From Bacteroidota bacterium (GTDB lineage: Bacteria; Bacteroidota; Ignavibacteria; UBA10030; UBA8401): a stretch of DNA of 64,000 bases. The translations under genes and the position numbers were made by a program. Of this stretch, positions 4,839 to 63,849 are shown in pieces; within the stretch, counting starts at the first letter, position 1; each line of letters starts with the position of its first letter. A model generated the notes under the pieces. It worked only from the letters and a program-made list of their open reading frames with translations. It was not told the DNA's origin and searched no databases. The stretch is taken from positions 1,532 through 65,531 of the forward strand of contig JAJYOI010000003.1 in the NCBI GenBank assembly GCA_021796275.1, given 5' to 3'.

Positions 4839-5753
4839 ATGCACAAATCAGAAATGGCGTTGAAAACAGTGCTGTTCTACTCGCTCGTCGCTGTGACTGC
4901 AGCATTCAGTCAATCATTGTCACAGACGAAACTCCTGAAGGACAAATTTACATCTCAACTTCACACAATTGCCGATACGTCGAATTGCGTTGTCGGTGTT
5001 GCAATCAAGGATTTGGTAACGGGTGAGCAATTTCTCATCAACGAAAATGAAATCTTTCCGCAGGCAAGCGCAATTAAAATTCACATTCTTGCAGAGTTGT
5101 ACCGGCAGGCGGCAGAAAAGAAATTTTCTCTCGCCGATGTTGTGCCGCTTTTACCTAAATTCAAAGTCGGCGGTTCCGGCATTCTGAATTCGCTTGATAA
5201 CAATGTCTCGATGACACTGCGGGATTACGCCGTGCTGATGATTGTTCTCAGCGACAACAGCGCGACAAATTTACTGATTGACAAAGTTGGAATGGACAAC
5301 GTCAACGCTTCGCTGAAAAAAATCGGCGCGGCGCATACAAAGCTTCAACGTGTGATGATGGACTACAAAGCGGCGGCGGAAGGGAAAGAAAATATCAGCA
5401 CGCCTGCCGATGTGATGATGGTGCTCGAAAAAATGGATGCGGGAGAAATCGTCAACAAAGCCGCGTGCGACGACATGCTTTCCATCATGCGCATTGACAA
5501 AGACGGGCCGCTTCGCAGCGGCATCCCTCCGTCTGTTTCACTGGCAAATAAAGAAGGCGATATTGAAGGCGTACGATGCGATGTCGGCATTGTCGCGCTG
5601 CCGGATCATCCCTATATCATTTGCGTGATGACAAAATTGCTGCTGGTAGATTCAGAGGGACCAGAGATCATCACGGCCGTTTCGCGCGCGGCGTACAATT
5701 ATTTCGAGCGTGTTGCAGATTCGAATGAATATGGAAGAAGAATACCGAGGTAA
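4839..5753 (+). CDS. Secreted serine hydrolase, class A beta-lactamase-like fold
   Basis: SxxK (SAIK) and SDN motifs are present. KTG is not evident (NKEG). Signal peptide MHKSEMALKTVLFYSLVAVTAAFSQ. Internal ATG 4839 with RBS aggaagg chosen over ORF-track start 4668, which overlaps the permease. Confidence 0.55.
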   Translation: MHKSEMALKTVLFYSLVAVTAAFSQSLSQTKLLKDKFTSQLHTIADTSNCVVGVAIKDLVTGEQFLINENEIFPQASAIKIHILAELYRQAAEKKFSLADVVPLLPKFKVGGSGILNSLDNNVSMTLRDYAVLMIVLSDNSATNLLIDKVGMDNVNASLKKIGAAHTKLQRVMMDYKAAAEGKENISTPADVMMVLEKMDAGEIVNKAACDDMLSIMRIDKDGPLRSGIPPSVSLANKEGDIEGVRCDVGIVALPDHPYIICVMTKLLLVDSEGPEIITAVSRAAYNYFERVADSNEYGRRIPR

Positions 5754-44971: not shown

Positions 44972-45309
44972 TTGATTCTTCTCCTGTAAATAGATTTATG
45001 CATGAGATAATATTAGAGACTTCTGAAAAATGACAACCAGGCTGTGGTGAGCGAAGTCGAACCACGATTTCATCACAATTTCCGCACTTTGACTTCACTC
45101 AGTGCGACTTTCTTGAATTGCAAAACGATTTTTCAGAAATCTCTACTACTAAGTCATGTTACGCAGCGAAAAAATCTGCCTAAAAAAGTAAGTTCGTCAT
45201 GGTACGCTTTAGCGTACCATCCATACTTGGATTCCTCCCGACTTTGTCGGGACGGGAATGACATTATTCTGATTTTGATTTTCAAGGCAGTCATTTTGCG
45301 TACCATGAG

Positions 45310-47644: not shown

Positions 47645-49561
47645 TCACTTTAGCAAAGTCAGCTTCTTAGTTTGGATCTGGCTGCCGGCTTGAATTCTAT
47701 AGAAGTAAACTCCACTCGGAAAGTTGCTCCCATCGAAAGTAACAGAGTGCCCGCCGGCATTTTGCTTTTCGTTGACGAGCGATTTAACTTCTCTTCCGAG
47801 GACATCATAGATCTTCAGCGAGACGAAACTGTTCGTAGGTAATTGATAACTTAATGTGGTCGTTGGGTTGAAGGGGTTGGGGTAGTTCTGCCCGAGTTGA
47901 AATTCGATTGGCTTTCCCTTAGGCTGCTTAATTCCAACGGGCGCGAGGCCGATACCTGAAGCTCCTACTGAATCAGGCGATTCAGCCGAGTTGCTGACGA
48001 TGGTAATCATAGCCTGCTTAGAATATACATCAGGTGTAGCGGGGGTGAATCTGATCACCAACGAATCGCTTCTACGGGGAAGCACCAGAGATGGTATCTG
48101 CACAACTGAGAATTGCGGATCGGTGGATGAAACCGATATTATTCTCAGTGTATCAAATCCGACATTTTCCAGTAGCAACGAGGTGTCTTTGCATTCCCCG
48201 GTTAAAACGTTGCCGCATAAAACTCCGGATTCCTGTAGCTTGAGGAACGGGACCTTTGAATAAAGCAGGACCGGGATCGAGTCGGGGCTCAAGTAAGAAT
48301 TCGATGTGAAAACAATATTACCTGAATATTTGCCGGCTGAAGTCGCCATAGTGCTGACCTGGAAGCAGCCGGTATCTCCGGGTGAGATCGTTGCACTAGA
48401 TGGCGTAATATTAAATGCAGGGTTGGTTGAATTCACCTTTGAGATAAGCAGCGTATCGACCCCTCTATTTCTTATCACGATGGTATCGCGCACAGGGGAA
48501 GAAGTAATGTCACTGACGATCCTTACGATTCGTTGATTGATGCCAAACATAGTGGTCGATTGCCGGGTCTTAAAAATGCCATGTTCAAATGTTCCTGCTA
48601 GCAAATCACCGGCTTTGTTTGTTGCGAAACAAAGGACCTCGATGCCTTCAAGACCGGAATTGAGCTGGATCCATGATGCTGCATTGTGAAGCGAGAGATA
48701 AACTCCATCTGCGGTCGCCGCAAACAAATGCCCGATGGAATTTTCCTTTAAGTCAGACATGTAAACCTCAGGTAATCCACTGTCTGACCAATACCAAAAG
48801 GCTCCGAGATCGTTTGACTTCATCACACCACCATCCGTGCCGAGATAAATAACATTATCAGCTCCAATTGCAATCGCTCGCGTGGTATAAAGCCATGGAG
48901 ACCTCCCTACAAACGTGACATGACACCAACTCGTGCCGTCATCCGTTGAGCGGAATATTTCGCATCCACCTCCACTAGCATAAATATCGCCTATCGAGTT
49001 AAATGTCATGGCATACACTTGAGTCTCGTCAAAGAACACAGTGCTCCAAATGGTTCCACCATCCGTTGACCGCGATATTCCACCGACCCCGCCGGCAAAG
49101 ACCTGACCCTCCGAATTTGCAACGATTGTCCTGACATAAGTTACATCGCTTCCGATATTTAATTTATTCCACGTGAGGCCGTCGTCGGTTGATTTATAAA
49201 CCTGACCGTGGAGAGAAGCAAAGAGATTTCCATGCGGGTCACAGGCAATCGAAGAGGTAATGGTAAGTTCTCCGGCGTTGCCGTTGCCACCGTTTGTTAT
49301 CCAAGCCCATGTTTCGCCATTATCGGATGAACGGTAAATACCCGAATCTGCAGTCCCCGCGAACATAGTGCCCAAGGAATCGACCAAGACGCACCAAACG
49401 CTTGCTTTGTAGGGAAAAGGTACCGATTGCCAAAAAGGATTGTCAGAATTTGTAGTTTGCGATGCAAACGACGGAATCGAAGTCGCCAGTGCCAGGAGAG
49501 CGACAAGTACAAGATACAATCGGCTTTCCATCTTGACAATGATCTCACCGCGGGTTCCCAT
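47645..49561 (-). CDS. Secreted BNR/Asp-box repeat (beta-propeller) protein with T9SS C-terminal domain
   Basis: Repeated SxDxGxTW motifs (SSDNGETWAW, STDDGLTWNK, STDGGTIWST, STDDGTSWCH). C-terminal LGQNYPNPFNPTTTLSYQLP…KLTLLK CTD. Confidence 0.65.
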   Translation of the reverse strand: MGTRGEIIVKMESRLYLVLVALLALATSIPSFASQTTNSDNPFWQSVPFPYKASVWCVLVDSLGTMFAGTADSGIYRSSDNGETWAWITNGGNGNAGELTITSSIACDPHGNLFASLHGQVYKSTDDGLTWNKLNIGSDVTYVRTIVANSEGQVFAGGVGGISRSTDGGTIWSTVFFDETQVYAMTFNSIGDIYASGGGCEIFRSTDDGTSWCHVTFVGRSPWLYTTRAIAIGADNVIYLGTDGGVMKSNDLGAFWYWSDSGLPEVYMSDLKENSIGHLFAATADGVYLSLHNAASWIQLNSGLEGIEVLCFATNKAGDLLAGTFEHGIFKTRQSTTMFGINQRIVRIVSDITSSPVRDTIVIRNRGVDTLLISKVNSTNPAFNITPSSATISPGDTGCFQVSTMATSAGKYSGNIVFTSNSYLSPDSIPVLLYSKVPFLKLQESGVLCGNVLTGECKDTSLLLENVGFDTLRIISVSSTDPQFSVVQIPSLVLPRRSDSLVIRFTPATPDVYSKQAMITIVSNSAESPDSVGASGIGLAPVGIKQPKGKPIEFQLGQNYPNPFNPTTTLSYQLPTNSFVSLKIYDVLGREVKSLVNEKQNAGGHSVTFDGSNFPSGVYFYRIQAGSQIQTKKLTLLK

Positions 49562-51252: not shown

Positions 51253-51385
51253 AATAGAACCTCATGAGTAATGGTAAGATGTAAGCCCCTCACAGCAGTG
51301 CGCTGTGCCGGTGGCTTGTGAGTTAAGTATGACCCGCAAAATTTCTCTGTGTCGTTCATCGCGTCTTCGCGGTAAAATTCTTTTT

Positions 51386-51615
51386 TGTCATTCTGAGGTT
51401 TCATCTTAGCTTTGTCAAGAATCTTCGTGAAATGTGACATCAATGATCATGCTGAGCGTCAGCGAAGTGGCGCTTTACGCCATGACGCCAAATCGTAGAT
51501 GGCACAGAAGGCGACAGGCGCTCACATCCAGTTCTGGATTTGCCGCTGTACGGCATCCTGTACAGCGGGACTTCGTCCGCCGTGGCGGACCCAGAATGAC
51601 TGCGCTCAGCATCAC
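51386..51615. repeat. Nested inverted-repeat (MITE/REP-like) element
   Basis: Outer inverted repeat GTCATTCTG (51386) / CAGAATGAC (51593). Inner inverted repeat ATGCTGAGCG (51448) / CGCTCAGCAT (51603). Internal hairpins CCGCTGTACggcatcctGTACAGCGG and GTCCGCCgtgGCGGAC. Confidence 0.5.
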
Positions 51616-51866
51616 CGGTATCGAATTCAAAAAAAAATCCGGAGCGGACAGAAAAAAATATCCGTTCATCGCCGAAGCGAAATCGCTCACAGAAAAAATT
51701 ACGTCAAGAAACTATTGGGAATAACATTACCTCTGTGCCGCCCCAACCCCATTCATAGGATTGGTGTCCGTTCTCTATCCCGTACTACAACCTCTTCCTC
51801 TCTGCACGGACTATGAAACAAATAAAAAGATTTTCCCGAAAAAGCAAGACTCGCAATAAAAAAGAT

Positions 51867-51907
51867 GTCCAGATGTAGGACACCTCAAAGGTGTCCTACA
51901 TCTGGAC
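51867..51907. other. Perfect 18-bp stem hairpin (loop TCAAA)
   Basis: GTCCAGATGTAGGACACC tcaaa GGTGTCCTACATCTGGAC. No flanking U-tract. Confidence 0.8.
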
Positions 51908-52008
51908 CTAAAAATCAGACGCGTCGTACCATTGCTGTCCGACAGTTGAGCTGTCGCACTGAGCGAAGACGAAGTGCGACAAACGACAGTTAAATCCTTC
52001 AAGAATAA

Positions 52009-52632
52009 TTACTTCACTTTCAAATGGTACATCTCTTCCAGCATCTTAACGTATTCCGCCATTGGCGGCAGCCCAAGCTCTGCGCGGCGTTTGTCAACAT
52101 TCGCTTCATCTTCAATCGGGTTAACGACAAGTTTGCCGTCCGCAATTCTTGCCTGACTTCCGTATAATTGTTTCTTCCCTTCCCGCACAAAAACCCGGTC
52201 GGTCAGCAATGCAACATCATTGCCCGAAACTTCTCCGCCTTTGAATGCCTCTTGCACCAACGGAAGGCAGCTTTTTTGAAACACCGTATCGGGCGAATGT
52301 TGCACGATAAGAAACGCCGCCTCCGCGCCGTCTTTTCCAACAAGGTGTATGCCGGGCCACCCGTGTTCTTTTATTATTTCCTTAATGTGCTTCGTATCAG
52401 CCCGGTCAATTGAATCCATCCTCATTACAATCGTCGAGTCCATTGCATGCGATGACATTGCATTGATCCAATCCGTACGGATCTTCTGGTCAATCACTTC
52501 CATCGCAAGAAGCTCCTGCCGAAGCGACGGATTGCCAACCGTGGTGTGCGATGTGTCGGTGTGCTGTTGGCAGAATCCGTTTGTGCAAACCGCCGCCACC
52601 AAAAGCAGCACGAACAAATTAAAACGTTTCAT
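52009..52632 (-). CDS. Hypothetical secreted protein
   Basis: 207 aa, signal peptide MKRFNLFVLLLVAAVCTNGFCQQ. Confidence 0.3.
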   Translation of the reverse strand: MKRFNLFVLLLVAAVCTNGFCQQHTDTSHTTVGNPSLRQELLAMEVIDQKIRTDWINAMSSHAMDSTIVMRMDSIDRADTKHIKEIIKEHGWPGIHLVGKDGAEAAFLIVQHSPDTVFQKSCLPLVQEAFKGGEVSGNDVALLTDRVFVREGKKQLYGSQARIADGKLVVNPIEDEANVDKRRAELGLPPMAEYVKMLEEMYHLKVK

Positions 52633-52670
52633 GTTTCCCTTCTTTTTACTCAGTAAAGGTTAGCCAGCAG

Positions 52671-53090
52671 CTAGTAATTCATTCTTGTGTACACAGATGT
52701 GAAGCCATCCGTAATCATATCGCTAAGAATTAGTGAATCGGTTGTCACTTTTATAACAAGCAAACTAAATCTTCTTGAATTGATGAAATCAATTACTAAA
52801 TGAGATTGTGATGAGTCAGAAATATTGAACTGATACGTCGTAAATTTATCTGTAAATGTTGTTGTATCATTTCTCAATTCAATGTAGTTGCTATCGCTGG
52901 TAATCCTAAGTACATAGACATTGTCGCCCGTTGGAGTTGTTGTTGTTCCGCCAATGCCGCCTGTCGTGCTCTTCCACTGCCAATTACCTATGATATCAGA
53001 ACTAATGTTGCCCTCATTTGTTGGATTTGAGTTACATCCAATTAATAATGCACCAAAAAGGACAACCAAAATACCATTTAATTGCTTCAT
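52671..53090 (-). CDS. Hypothetical lipoprotein
   Basis: 139 aa. Lipobox LIGCNS. Confidence 0.3.
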   Translation of the reverse strand: MKQLNGILVVLFGALLIGCNSNPTNEGNISSDIIGNWQWKSTTGGIGGTTTTPTGDNVYVLRITSDSNYIELRNDTTTFTDKFTTYQFNISDSSQSHLVIDFINSRRFSLLVIKVTTDSLILSDMITDGFTSVYTRMNY

Positions 53091-53256
53091 ATGATGATCC
53101 TCCTTTGCTGTTGCCTAACGGCATTGGATTTCAGCGGCGTAAACCGTTTGGCGGGTTCGTTGACTGTTTATAGATTTGTAACTCTAAAACACCTGACTGT
53201 TTCTTGACTCGTTTACTCTGTTTGCGTCTCGCCGGTGTACTTTATTCTCTTGCCTG

Positions 53257-53280
53257 CCCCGATTTTGTCGGGGACTTTTT
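53257..53280 (+). terminator. Possible rho-independent terminator (CCCCGA ttttg TCGGGG + ACTTTTT)
   Basis: 6-bp GC-rich stem plus T-run on the plus strand. No obvious plus-strand gene upstream, so it may end an unannotated transcript. Confidence 0.35.
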
Positions 53281-53313
53281 ACTTACTAAAAAGGTTTGCC
53301 AGCGGTAATAATT

Positions 53314-53910
53314 TTAAAAAAAGGTTTCAGGCATCCATTCGTTTCCTTCTGGATCAGCAATCCAATAATCGGGAACATTATACTGCTTTTTGAAGGATGG
53401 AAAAGTTTGCCAAAACTGTTCATCAATCCAAATACCCATTTTTTTATGTAAGTCGTCTGCTGCATTGACAGTTGGCTGATCTAACTCGAATTTTGACAAA
53501 GTTGGAGACCATTGACAATGACAAATAGCATTTCGAAAATCTTTGAACGGAATTTTAACAGGAAAATCCGAGAACTCTTTTGGAATTGAATCGAAAATAG
53601 ATTCAATATTAACTTTTTCAGACTTTGGTGTATCAAACGGATCTAATCCATTTGTCAAACCTTCTTGAATACTTCTTAAGAAGGAGAGCCATAAACATAA
53701 CTTCATATAACCTTGTCCCGCTGCAAGACTCCAACACTTTGGCGCAACAATTTCATTTCCTGCGCGGTCAAGTTGATTGTAAAACCAATTAGCCCACTTC
53801 CACTTTCGTCTTAATTCCCAAAGGACCCAAAACTTTCTCCAAACCAGCAAATCGTCTTTGTGGTCACCCCAAGAATCTAAATAAGAAGGTATTTTATTGT
53901 TTGAATTCAA
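53314..53910 (-). CDS. Hypothetical cytoplasmic Trp-rich protein
   Basis: 198 aa. No signal peptide and no known motif. Confidence 0.3.
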   Translation of the reverse strand: MNSNNKIPSYLDSWGDHKDDLLVWRKFWVLWELRRKWKWANWFYNQLDRAGNEIVAPKCWSLAAGQGYMKLCLWLSFLRSIQEGLTNGLDPFDTPKSEKVNIESIFDSIPKEFSDFPVKIPFKDFRNAICHCQWSPTLSKFELDQPTVNAADDLHKKMGIWIDEQFWQTFPSFKKQYNVPDYWIADPEGNEWMPETFF

Positions 53911-54330
53911 TTAGTATTTATAAATCAGTTTACGAAATTATGCTGATCACCGCCACCTAATTATTAATTATACTGCACGTTATTCGTGCGTAAAGTACAT
54001 AGACATGCAGGATCGTGCATATTTATCATCCATCGTCTATATCAGCCTAACGGACTTCATATTTCTTTTCGACGCTCTTGCACAAAACAACACCTCTCCT
54101 GTGTCTCAGGCTTTTTCACCGAGAAATCTTTACTTCATTTCATTTGGAAAATCTTCTCTTTCACAGCTATCACCCAAAAGAGATAAGGCTTGTGCGCTAC
54201 AAATGGAATCGTTTGCGGGTTGAAAATGACGCCATAGGCGTTATTGAAAATCCCTTAGGGATTCTGCTCTCGCCCCGCGCAACATAATTTCCCGTTTCCC
54301 TTAGTCAAAATCAAGTCCCCGGCAGAGAAA

Positions 54331-54457
54331 GCAGTGACTCATTTTGAACTCTTCTAAGATGTTTTATTTGATTCCCGACAGAAGCATTCGGGAATGACGA
54401 ACTTCCATTTACGTCATGCCCGCAGATTTTTGGCGGGCATCCAAAATGAGTCACTGC
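54331..54457. repeat. Composite palindromic element (16-bp inverted repeats flanking two internal hairpins)
   Basis: GCAGTGACTCATTTTG (54331..54346) / CAAAATGAGTCACTGC (54442..54457). Internal ATTCCCGAcagaagcaTCGGGAAT and ATGCCCGCagatttttgGCGGGCAT. Confidence 0.7.
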
Positions 54458-55232
54458 CGCAGAGAAAGTTACAGTCAATTCTCTTCGTGCGGACCCCGCC
54501 AGCGTTCTTTTCCGCCTAAGGCGGGCATGTTTCCGCAGTGTTTTGGGAAGTGCAACTCGGTTCCGGACAGTCGCAAATGAAATATGCGAAAGCGCAGATT
54601 GAATCCGGAAGTGCCCGGATTCAATCCGCGCATGTACACTTCGTTTCCGGACATCCCCCGATGCGGGTGCGGGTGCCCAAAGAAAAAGCGGGCATGTACA
54701 GATTCGACCGTTACATGTACACTTTTCACCGGGACATGTAACGGCGGCAGTTGTACATGTGCAAACGAAGGCGAAACATGCCCATTTTCTATGTATAAGC
54801 GCCAAAATTGCGCGTGTAGTTGGGTTTTCACCAAAAATGTGGTAGTGTTACCGTTTGATGTTCCCTAACCCCAAAAACCAGTCACCGCCTTGGGCGGAAT
54901 AGTCCGGCTCTCCCGTTTAGGCAATGTCTGAGCGGGATCGCTCCATAACCTTGCTTTCAAAATGTAACACTACGGTAGTGCCTCAGTTTGAAATTTTCCC
55001 GGTGGGACAGACATTTGAGCGCCGTTGGCGCCATGGCGCTTTGCGCCACCTGTCTGTCGAAAATAGGTCAGACAAGAATGTCTGACCTACCTAAAAAATG
55101 AAATTGAAACACCGCCAACACTACCCTCTGCTTGACTTTCCCGTCTCTCCTTCTCACATTATCTCTCGCCGGCTTCAAAGTGATTTCAGTGCTTGCACAA
55201 CACGATATTTCTCACCCTAAAAGGTCTGCATT

Positions 55233-57383
55233 ATGAAAACATCTTCTTCGAACGGCGGCGCGGCAAACAGCAAGGCACATGGGATAGTGAAAGTTGCATT
55301 AAGCGGCAGCGCCGGCGGAATTTTGATGAGACGGCTTCTTCCTGCCGCCATTGTTATTCCCCCCGCCCTCGGCTGGCTCTGCGCTCTTGGAGAATATAAA
55401 GGATTGTTCGGGCTTGAATTCGAAACGGGGCTGTTTGCATTTTCAAATGTCGTTATCTTCTCACTTCTCATCTGGCGCAGTGCAATCGCCGTCAATCAGC
55501 AGGAAGAAAAACGGGAGACGGCGGAACATTCATTGCAAAAAACAGAAGAAGGCTTCCGCCTCATATTTATGAACAACCCGCTTCCGATGTGGTTCTTTGA
55601 CGCCGAGACGCTTGCGTTTCTTGAAGTGAACAACGCCGCCGCAGTTCATTACGGGTACAGCCGCGAAGAATTCCTGACGATGACGCTTGAAGATATTCGT
55701 CCGGCAGAAGAGATCCCAAAACTCCGCGCCGATATTGAACAGCACCACACCGGACTTGACAAGTCGGGCATGTGGAAGCACAAGAAGAAAGACGGAACAA
55801 TCATTGACGTGGACATTACCTCGCAGGAAATTATATTCGCCGGTAGAAAAGCGAAATTTGTCCTTGCGCGCGACGTCACCGACATTGCCAAAGCCGAAGA
55901 ATCTCTCGTACGGTTAGCCGCAATTATCGAATTCTCCGATGATGCCATTATCAGCAAAACCCTGAACGGTATCATCACAAGCTGGAACAAAGGCGCGGAA
56001 AGAATATTTCTTTATACAGCGGACGAAATGATCGGGAAATCCATGCGCGTGCTGAACCCGCCGGAGCGCATCAATGAAGAAGACGAAATTATTCGGAAGA
56101 TCGCCCGCGGAGAAAATGTTGAGCACCTTGAAACGGTGCGCGTACGGAAAGACGGAACGCAGATCATTGTTGCGGCAACAATCTCGCCGATCAAAGACAG
56201 CAAAGGCGCAATCATCGGCGCGTCGAACATTACGCGGGATATCACCGCGAGCAGAAAGGCAGAAGAAGGCCTTCGCAGCGCGGAGTCGCGCTACAAGAGT
56301 ACGCTCGATTCGATGATGGAAGGATGCCAGATCATCGGCTTCGACTTTCAGTACCTGTACGTGAATGACGTCGTGGCAGGTCAGGGAAAAATGGGAAGAG
56401 AGAATTTGCTCGGTCACAGAATGATGGAAGTATATCCCGGCATTGAGAACTCGGAAATGTTTGCTCACCTCACGACGTGCATGAAAGACCGGGCGCCGTA
56501 TCACATGGAAAATGAATTCCCATTCCCTGATGGCACAAGCGGCTGGTTCAAGCTGAGCATGGAACCTGTGCCCGAAGGGGTCTTCATCCTTTCGGCAGAC
56601 ATCACAAAAGAGAAACAGCTTGCGGAAGAGATCAGAAAGCACCGTGAACATCTTGAAGAGCTGGTGCGCGAACGTACCGCACAATTGGAAGCGGCGAACA
56701 GGGAACTTGAAGCATTCTCGTATTCCGTCTCTCACGATCTGCGCGCACCGCTTCGCCACATAGACGGGTTTGCCGATCTCCTGGTCAAACATGCGTCCGC
56801 GAACGGCGGGCTCGACGAGAAAAGCCGGCGCTACCTTTCAATCATCTCTGAATCTGCCAAGCAAATGGGCGTTCTTATTGACGAGCTTCTGGTCTTTTCA
56901 CGAATGGGGCGCGTTGAGATATGCACAACGGAAGTTGCTTTACAGCCGCTGGTGAAAAAAATAATTGCCGACATGAGCAATGATATTCAGGGAAGAACAG
57001 TGGAATGGAAGATTGAGGCGCTGCCGGTGGTTCATGGCGATCCTTCAATGCTTCGGCTTGCATTGGAAAACCTGATCGGCAACGCGGTAAAGTATACCCG
57101 CCCGCGTGAAAAAGCAATCATTCAAATCGGACATACGGAAACCGCGGCGCTCGGCAGCGAAGTAGTGGTGTATATTCGCGACAACGGTGTCGGCTTTGAT
57201 ATGCGGTACACCGATAAATTGTTCGGAGTCTTTCAACGCCTTCATCGTTCGGAAGATTTTGAGGGAACAGGTGTCGGTTTGGCAAACGTTCGTCGTATTA
57301 TTGAGCGGCACGGCGGCAGAACGTGGGCTGAAGGAGAAGTTGACAAAGGAGCGACATTTTATTTTTCACTGCCTGCACCTTAG
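55233..57383 (+). CDS. Multi-PAS sensor histidine kinase
   Basis: 716 aa. N-terminal TM helices, about 3 PAS/PAC modules, HisKA (SHDLRAPLRHI), HATPase_c (GVGLANVRRI…). Confidence 0.9.
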   Translation: MKTSSSNGGAANSKAHGIVKVALSGSAGGILMRRLLPAAIVIPPALGWLCALGEYKGLFGLEFETGLFAFSNVVIFSLLIWRSAIAVNQQEEKRETAEHSLQKTEEGFRLIFMNNPLPMWFFDAETLAFLEVNNAAAVHYGYSREEFLTMTLEDIRPAEEIPKLRADIEQHHTGLDKSGMWKHKKKDGTIIDVDITSQEIIFAGRKAKFVLARDVTDIAKAEESLVRLAAIIEFSDDAIISKTLNGIITSWNKGAERIFLYTADEMIGKSMRVLNPPERINEEDEIIRKIARGENVEHLETVRVRKDGTQIIVAATISPIKDSKGAIIGASNITRDITASRKAEEGLRSAESRYKSTLDSMMEGCQIIGFDFQYLYVNDVVAGQGKMGRENLLGHRMMEVYPGIENSEMFAHLTTCMKDRAPYHMENEFPFPDGTSGWFKLSMEPVPEGVFILSADITKEKQLAEEIRKHREHLEELVRERTAQLEAANRELEAFSYSVSHDLRAPLRHIDGFADLLVKHASANGGLDEKSRRYLSIISESAKQMGVLIDELLVFSRMGRVEICTTEVALQPLVKKIIADMSNDIQGRTVEWKIEALPVVHGDPSMLRLALENLIGNAVKYTRPREKAIIQIGHTETAALGSEVVVYIRDNGVGFDMRYTDKLFGVFQRLHRSEDFEGTGVGLANVRRIIERHGGRTWAEGEVDKGATFYFSLPAP

Positions 57384-63712: not shown

Positions 63713-63717
63713 TAGTC

Positions 63718-63745
63718 ATTCCCGCGAAAGCGGGAGTTCATTTTT
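63718..63745 (+). terminator. Rho-independent terminator after the S10 peptidase gene
   Basis: TTCCCGC gaaa GCGGGAG hairpin followed by TTCATTTTT. Confidence 0.6.
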
Positions 63746-63849
63746 AAAACTGGATTATCAATAATTAGATTCCCGACAAAGCATTCAGGAATGACGTTCA
63801 ACTTTTTTGGATAACTTTAGTTACGAAAAAAACATTTTTGAGGTAAAGC

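Follow-up and report, generated by a model that had tools for sequence, protein, structure and literature searches.

Introduction

Insertion sequences of the IS1 family are recognised by ends of the form GGnnnTG and by direct repeats of 8-9 bp (PMC10425158). Among short intergenic palindromes, close counterparts have been described in Neisseria, where Chenal et al. (2025) gave NTS as CGTCATTCCCGCGMAVGCGGGAATCYRG, a sequence that contains dRS3, and defined a broader "Ssn-related motif" (SRM); small GIY-YIG nucleases of the Ssn type bind and cut NTS/SRM hairpins solely as single-stranded DNA, and ssn genes are often bracketed by SRM hairpins (PMC11893778). The dRS3 repeats (ATTCCC-N8-GGGAAT) alternate with RS units of 50-150 bp in neisserial intergenic mosaic elements, or NIMEs (PMC1797815). 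Modulation of recombination or DNA uptake has been proposed for NTS/dRS3 arrays in Neisseria. Here we analyse a 1322-nt intergenic stretch, positions 53911-55232 of a 64,000-nt window (contig JAJYOI010000003.1) from a metagenome-assembled genome (MAG) of the Ignavibacteria, which separates a minus-strand gene for a 198-aa protein (53314-53910) from a PAS histidine-kinase gene (55233-57383). The stretch is non-coding and has probably been enlarged by small mobile palindromic elements that accumulated in the kinase-upstream spacer, at a break in gene order. These elements belong to known kinds, IS1-family MITEs (miniature inverted-repeat transposable elements) and NTS/SRM-type hairpins; the mildly novel aspect is that the hairpins ride in a transposon-type MITE family with interchangeable interiors.

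Results

A 127-bp palindrome assigned to an IS1-type MITE family

An initial annotation of this DNA had drawn attention to a 127-bp composite palindrome, including a 16-bp inverted repeat around two 8-bp-stem hairpins, and had proposed to ask whether the palindrome is dispersed. The inverted repeat is perfect (16/16, 54331-54346 / 54442-54457) and forms part of a 129-bp unit, designated E1, which is bounded by target-site duplications (TSDs) and is organised as follows (strand given where one applies).

54322-54329: left TSD, GCAGAGAA, the same octamer as at 54459-54466
54330-54458: MITE E1, 129 bp, with 17-bp termini (left AGCAGTGACTCATTTTG, right CAAAATGAGTCACTGCC)
54369-54400, minus strand: NTS/SRM-like hairpin CGTCATTCCCGAATGCTTCTGTCGGGAATC within E1, with a recurrent 25-nt core
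54412-54443, plus strand: second NTS/SRM-like hairpin CGTCATGCCCGCAGATTTTTGGCGGGCATCC within E1
54459-54466: right TSD, GCAGAGAA, completing a perfect 8-bp duplication

The palindrome proved to be dispersed. A metagenome scan for both 13-nt termini lying 80-110 nt apart found E1-type termini on 36 contigs, giving 37 copies with that of the window and a consensus terminus of GGTAGTGACTCATTTTG. When the termini are taken as 17 bp long, the flanking octamers agree at seven or more of eight positions in 24 of the 37 copies and perfectly in 18, the window copy included, compared with 0 or 1 of 37 at every other offset. The MITEs of this family measure 106-136 bp and are without coding capacity; E1 itself shows no coding signal, and its DNA folds at -34 kcal/mol (z = -7.5).

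Termini of the same type also bound three larger elements, of 2,769 bp (L184-L187, 862-3630), 2,817 bp (L189-L190, 16-2832) and 2,430 bp (L165, 7291-9720). An 8-bp duplication is present at each of them, the two octamers agreeing at 7/8 positions in L184-L187, and the termini of L189/L190 are the exact consensus. The larger elements contain two overlapping open reading frames (ORFs) that match the NCBIfam model for IS1 family transposases (NF033558) over complementary parts of the profile, with E values of 3e-9 to 8e-5 but scores below the full-length cut-off, and the second ORF of L185 also matches Pfam PF03400 (DDE_Tnp_IS1) at 25.0 bits against a threshold of 24.1. At 2.4-2.8 kb these elements are unusually long, with passenger ORFs of the DUF3800 and DUF4760 families, and look like cargo-carrying IS1 relatives; that of L165 holds a weakly Cas2-like ORF and a truncated transposase. 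Transposase remnants in L178-L183 were set aside as lacking recognisable ends.

The comparison with the IS1 family is close at the termini. The family consensus begins GGTAGTG, in agreement with GGnnnTG, and its end GGTAGTGACTCA matches the E. coli IS1 end GGTAATGACTCC at 10/11 positions; the window copy reads GGCAGTG at the right and, with one substitution, AGCAGTG at the left, its termini being 1-2 substitutions off the consensus, and its GCAGAGAA/GCAGAGAA duplication has the 8-9 bp length typical of IS1. The autonomous relatives likewise combine an 8-bp TSD with two overlapping ORFs and matches to IS1 transposase models, but they differ from the 768-bp E. coli IS1 in their length and passenger ORFs, and their transposases are distant from the IS1 models. 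Because the termini recur on 36 contigs, the 8-bp duplication is specific to one offset, and the same termini bound elements with IS1-type transposases, we identify E1 (54330-54458) as a non-autonomous IS1-family MITE. A doublet of repetitive extragenic palindromic (REP) sequences of the REPIN type, mobilised by a REP-associated tyrosine transposase (RAYT), resembles E1 in unit length (~100-130 bp), in being built of two inverted repeats that form hairpins and in having the tetranucleotide GTAG in its termini. This candidate was rejected, since RAYT/IS200-type transposition makes no TSD, whereas most E1-family copies have an 8-bp TSD and DDE (IS1-type) termini.

In the mechanism that we propose, a DDE transposase supplied in trans would recognise the 17-bp termini of E1 and insert it with duplication of 8 bp. 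The cargo of E1 is its two NTS/SRM-type hairpins, palindromes of a kind that Ssn cuts as single-stranded DNA in other bacteria.

The inner hairpins of E1 resemble NTS/SRM hairpins

The two hairpins of E1 are arranged head-to-head, with their 5' ends facing and 12 nt between them. When one genome per species was scanned, the 25-nt hairpin core was found in at least 119 stretches from at least 8 phyla, the matches listed coming from Ignavibacteria, Bacteroidota, Omnitrophota, Nitrospirota, Planctomycetes, Gammaproteobacteria, Binatia and Elusimicrobia. Among these listed matches the hairpin, ATTCCCGACA(N)AAGCATTCGGGAAT, is nearly invariant, and it mostly forms the second half of an inverted doublet, in which GTCATCCCCGAATG...CGGGGATCCAG is followed after ~15 nt by CTGGATTCCCGACA.AAGCATTCGGGAATGAC. 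The second hairpin type of E1 adjoins the first in three Ignavibacteria loci (L029, L077 and L086), and L088 has the head-to-head arrangement of the window. Tandem arrays also occur, with three copies ~245 nt apart in L063 and three copies in L026, and one groundwater gammaproteobacterial MAG holds many back-to-back pairs 45 nt apart (L044, L058, L070, L078, L100, L103 and L119).

Within the window, self-comparison revealed a further copy of the hairpin at 54370-54399 at 63768-63797, and there are three intergenic hairpin doublets in all (45196-45262, 54369-54443 and 63714-63797). Over 21 nt the copy at 63714-63735, AGTCATTCCCGCGAAAGCGGGAG, equals the Neisseria NTS (GTCATTCCCGCGAAAGCGGGA), and the doublet at 45.2 kb has its 3' ends facing, a layout common in other phyla.

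The orientation of flanking bases follows the published layout (PMC11893778), with (C)GTCAT 5' of the palindrome and C directly 3' of it: the window copies read CGTC-ATTCCCGA...TCGGGAAT-C and CGTC-ATGCCCGC...GCGGGCAT-C. They therefore share with NTS/SRM the succession of CGTCAT, a GC-rich palindrome built on (A)TTCCCG...CGGGAA(T), and C, as well as an intergenic, multi-copy distribution, often as inverted doublets. In contrast, they have 9-nt loops and other stems, which place them outside both the SRM pattern and the dRS3 definition. The published SRM pattern, HGTCWYN(0-2)YYVSBRHN(0-5)WNVSBRGN(0-2)RNCYNB, has 0 matches in the window because the 9-nt loops and the stem GAATG fall outside it, although it does match two other E1-family copies, L136 and L151. 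Against the N8 spacing of dRS3, the E1 hairpin reads ATTCCC-N13-GGGAAT, the nearest dRS3-like copy of the window (63717-63736) agreeing at 19/20 positions.

In other genomes the same hairpins bracket small GIY-YIG genes. Six small single-domain GIY-YIG ORFs were found among the loci selected by hairpin; the gene of L075 is bracketed by the doublet on both sides, those of L057 and L068 start 19 nt after the hairpin, and all three match PF01541 with E values of 1e-13 to 1e-17. A sequence search of the PDB with the GIY-YIG ORF gave no match. The 64-kb window contains no ssn-type GIY-YIG gene, its pair rides inside a transposon-type MITE, and cleavage here is only putative; the head-to-head orientation of the pair is that in which hairpins flank ssn genes elsewhere. 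By their oriented layout the inner hairpins of E1 are classed as members of the NTS/SRM family and putative Ssn targets.

Hairpin cargo across the MITE family

Clean paired GTCAY hairpins are present in 3 of the 37 E1-family interiors and GTCAY modules in 13, and the published SRM pattern occurs in two (0.02 expected), those of L136 and L151, both of which carry the published NTSvar sequence. The idea that most MITE interiors hold SRM hairpins is thus wrong. Another proposal, which we consider rather doubtful, is that IS1-type MITEs act as vehicles for Ssn-recognition hairpins, with GGTAGTGACTCATTTTG termini enclosing interchangeable interiors, some of which are inverted GTCAY pairs that include NTSvar (L136/L151) and the cross-phylum ATTCCCGACA..GGGAAT hairpin (window). 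If so, DDE transposition would, at least in part, spread SRM hairpins as hitch-hikers, or these would have a preference for insertion into MITE centres. In that case the window pair (GACG-12 nt-CGTC) could mark where an ssn cassette has been lost, because elsewhere ssn genes lie exactly between hairpins so oriented.

Gene order and the kinase promoter

Two orthologs of the kinase were found, at 77-78% identity and with the downstream gene order kept. Upstream of the kinase the relatives have a ~350-aa gene, NAPRTase and a ~1036-aa gene, and tblastn of these three proteins against the window returned nothing. The kinase-upstream spacer measures 135 nt in L125/L126 and ~430 nt in L122, and across it only the last ~105 nt before the start codon are conserved between the window and the relatives.

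55127-55232, plus strand: predicted kinase promoter and 5' leader, GCTTGACTTT ... TCTCACATTA, from alignment with L122 and L125

Because the spacer of the relatives is 135 nt and their upstream genes differ, these alignments place the stretch at a synteny breakpoint. Next to it is a low-GC segment (0.36-0.40, 52550-54050) with the genes for the 198-aa protein and for a ~139-aa protein that lacks a family assignment. The same pair recurs in L193 (7001-8086) in another neighbourhood, with 71% identity for the first protein; in view of this second context, the two genes act like a small module that is mobile or variable. The 198-aa protein belongs to a genuine gene family (17 homologs, 49-71% identity), and its likely start lies ~13 codons further in than the 53314-53910 ORF; the left boundary drawn in the initial annotation was roughly right.

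Two further candidate MITEs next to the kinase promoter

Two adjoining units fill the segment between the conserved promoter block and the palindromic DNA to the right of E1.

54841-54973: MITE-like unit E2a, 133 bp, with IS1-type ends (left GGTAGTGTTACCGTTTGA, right TCAAAATGTAACACTAC)
54974-55126: palindromic unit E4, 153 bp (left end GGTAGTGCCTCAGTTTGA, right end ...AACACTACC)

The kinase-upstream spacer of L122 contains a 216-bp insertion with the ends GGTAGTGTTACTGTTTGA / TCGAAATGTAACATTACC, which L125/L126 are without, and E2a is a shorter copy of it: the global alignment score is 102, where shuffles give 29.6 +/- 7.0, and agreement at the ends is 21/23 and 26/29 positions. The left end of E4, GGTAGTGCCTCAGTTTGA, is identical at 17/18 positions to the right terminus of the full-length element of L185. 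Both units have GGTAGTG ends, which fit GGnnnTG, and E4 encloses an inverted repeat and an 11-bp hairpin (fold z = -5.5). E2a and E4 are thus probable further MITEs of related elements, as judged by their ends. Matches of the E2-type terminus to viral contigs look like chance and lie within coding sequence.

Perfect hairpins and the remaining ~785 nt

The impression that the stretch is packed with perfect hairpins is borne out by counts. It has six perfect stems of at least 8 bp, compared with 0.50 +/- 0.69 in 300 dinucleotide-preserving shuffles, none of which reached six, so that such stems are ~12 times commoner than in the shuffles; for stems of at least 9 bp, 4 of the window's 21 fall in the stretch, which makes up 2% of the window. 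The individual structures described previously were recovered at the expected places: a 12-bp perfect stem (54597-54608 / 54615-54626, extendable to 17 nt at 94% complementarity), an 11-bp perfect stem (55064-55074 / 55079-55089) and the GACAGACA...TGTCTGTC inverted repeat around GC-rich hairpins (55006-55058), the latter two inside E4. Two ~28-bp segments reported as duplicated are only 64-80% alike, but the palindrome CATGTACA occurs four times in the window, always in the stretch.

The DNA outside the elements falls into two blocks.

53911-54321: AT-rich non-coding DNA (GC 0.37-0.44) adjoining the start of the 198-aa gene
54467-54840: palindromic DNA with a 40-nt hairpin (54592-54631, 12-bp perfect core) and a ~104-bp imperfect palindrome (54685-54788)

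The first block shows no coding signal and no match to the relatives, L193 or the fetched loci, and probably holds the promoter of the 198-aa gene, with a sigma-70-like site on the minus strand (53994-53967). In the second, the ~104-bp palindrome carries CATGTACA repeats and the block as a whole contains all four copies. The SRM-hairpin fragment GCGGGCAT occurs at 54521 and 54688, which, with two copies inside E1, brings four of the window's seven into the stretch. Since the block concentrates SRM fragments and CATGTACA copies, it most likely consists of decayed or locally duplicated copies of similar elements.

For neither block was a match seen elsewhere in the window or in the fetched loci, nor in the relatives, the full-length elements or the plasmid collection; blastn of the whole stretch against that collection gave no match. 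Tandem Repeats Finder reported only a 21-nt x 2.5 repeat in the stretch. Several other origins were rejected. The decayed interior of a large IS1-type element would not account for blastn and tblastx matches that are confined to the termini, and an upstream region native to the 198-aa gene module is not conserved in L193. Integron attC sites or a CRISPR array were discarded on the lack of R''/R' core sites, of regular spacing, and of integrase or cas genes nearby.

The 135-nt spacer of the relatives has a palindrome, ATTGAATTCAA(T/C), at its centre (L125, ~5222-5238), and in the window TTGAATTCAAT stands at the leftmost edge of the stretch; the arms ATTGAAT/ATTCAAT also form the base of the 12-bp-stem hairpin (54597-54626). 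A possible remnant of the ancestral spacer, or of an operator, at 53896-53912 (ATTGTTTGAATTCAAT, compared with ATTGATTGAATTCAA in the relatives) was too weak a match (rough p ~0.06) and was left unused.

The stretch lacks credible protein-coding genes

The gene caller of the collection made zero calls in 53911-55232, and the longest ORFs of the stretch have no match in Pfam, NCBIfam or PADLOC. ORFs of up to 164 aa are present. With a codon-usage log-odds score trained on the long genes of the window, held-out real genes score about +0.13 and shadow ORFs -0.01 to -0.18; the 164-aa ORF (-0.16) and a Cys-rich 94-aa ORF (-0.13) both fall in the shadow range. When the 164-aa ORF was searched exhaustively with HMMER against 1.84 billion representatives, a single marginal match came back (E = 1.8e-4), limited to residues 83-152, where the ORF reads through the MITE palindrome. 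The earlier judgement that the stretch has no credible ORF is therefore upheld. A tRNA/tmRNA search found none near the stretch, and a promoter and terminator scan of the stretch gave no excess relative to shuffles.

Two other assemblies, represented by an NCBI MAG contig and a Logan contig, show the sequence of the stretch at 100% identity. Assemblies break near the region, the MAG contig ending at 53233 and the Logan contig starting at 55079, inside the 11-bp hairpin, which is consistent with repeats or palindromes disturbing assembly.

Discussion

Taken together, these data suggest a spacer enlarged by mobile elements. The view of the initial annotation that it could be a cluster of MITE/REP-like elements holds for the 127-bp palindrome, a dispersed MITE with a TSD whose inner hairpins are REP-like and of NTS/SRM type, and probably for the units at 54841-55126; the rest (~785 nt) has no demonstrated copies elsewhere. 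That remainder would represent older, decayed or locally duplicated pieces of elements together with the promoter region of the left gene. As a whole the stretch would be without selected function, and its hairpins would have arisen as a side effect of transposon termini and of REP-like palindromes. Insulation or termination of transcription between the divergent genes may be an incidental effect, and the stretch may have been a substrate of recombination for the rearrangement.

Several observations weigh against this account. The TSD test at E2a and E4 gave no clean duplication, which is why the two units are probable and not proven MITEs, and the right terminus of E4 is degenerate. Resemblance to L122 extends to the left flank of E2a, so that E2a could be an inherited and not an independent insertion, or the element could be longer than drawn. 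Elements with recognisable ends cover only ~415 of the 1322 nt, and a mobile origin of the 12-bp-stem hairpin, the CATGTACA palindrome and 53911-54321 is a guess, because no copies of them were detected anywhere. Finally, the stretch may have a lineage-specific regulatory role.

The alternative that fares best, though we consider it improbable, is that of a selected NIME-like array, in which Ssn or recombinase sites would be kept for modulating recombination or DNA uptake near the neighbouring genes. The two NTS/SRM-like hairpins of the stretch, the two additional doublets in other gaps of the window and the GIY-YIG genes bracketed by the same hairpin in other genomes are in its favour, as are the position of the stretch at a rearrangement breakpoint beside a low-GC gene module that recurs in another context and the known location of NIME arrays beside variable genes (PMC1797815). 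With both NIMEs and the bacterial interspersed mosaic elements (BIMEs) of E. coli, the stretch has in common an intergenic mosaic of varied short palindromic repeats that differs between relatives and lies beside variable genes. However, just two clean hairpins occur in its 1.3 kb, without any alternation of dRS3-type and RS units; its recognisable units are MITEs bounded by terminal inverted repeats and TSDs; and the window copies all escape the SRM pattern in a window that has no ssn gene. Furthermore, the hairpins came as the cargo of a MITE with a TSD, an arrival that explains their presence without selection.

Very improbable, in our estimation, is that the stretch consists of protein-coding genes left to decay by the rearrangement. 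The relatives do hold a ~350-aa gene where the window is non-coding, and the ORFs of up to 164 aa and the ~785 nt without element assignment would leave room for pseudogenes, but tblastn of the relatives' upstream proteins and tblastx against the full-length IS elements were both empty, the model libraries gave no matches, the codon scores are those of shadow ORFs, and the sole HMMER match, a marginal one, falls on the MITE.

One or more structured non-coding RNAs, or a long regulatory leader controlling the PAS histidine kinase, as also suggested in the initial annotation, would fit the position directly upstream of the kinase gene and the very stable predicted folds (z -5.5 to -7.5), but can scarcely be credited, because the Rfam scan proposed there reached no family at the gathering threshold or even at E up to 10 (the best matches in the stretch scoring ~16 bits with E above 2, and the sole Rfam match in the window being a tRNA outside the stretch), the orthologous spacers of 135 and ~430 nt have only the last ~105 nt in common with the window, the conserved promoter-like block lies downstream of all hairpins, which would leave them out of the kinase transcript, and the folds are perfect palindromes, equal on both strands, as inverted repeats at the DNA level and transposon termini would give.

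Under the preferred reading, accumulation of mobile elements, the gap should be treated by annotators as repeat DNA, not as a missed gene or riboswitch, and its repeats would explain why two assemblies break there. With this locus an Ignavibacteria/Bacteroidota-like MAG joins the hosts of NTS/SRM-type hairpins, and a widespread soil and groundwater family of IS1-type MITEs is documented along with autonomous, cargo-carrying relatives. The locus also provides one concrete case in which a transposon-type MITE carries such hairpins, a finding relevant to how Ssn-related motifs multiply in genomes. In other respects the case is an ordinary, though well-documented, build-up of selfish DNA where gene order broke.

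Additional hairpins in the window

A hairpin at 48749-48791, TAAGTCAGACA ... TGTCTGACCAA, lies inside a gene for a protein sorted by the type IX secretion system (47645-49561), and each of its arms equals the 11-bp stem at 55064-55089 except for one base. A second gene-poor stretch, 51253-52008, contains three of the window's 21 long perfect hairpins. One of these, a 19-bp perfect stem at 51867-51907 followed by a T-run on the minus strand, has the appearance of a terminator for the DUF6624 gene (52009-52632), and degenerate modules of the GTCATGCTGAGCG... type stand in inverted orientation at ~51447 and ~51596.

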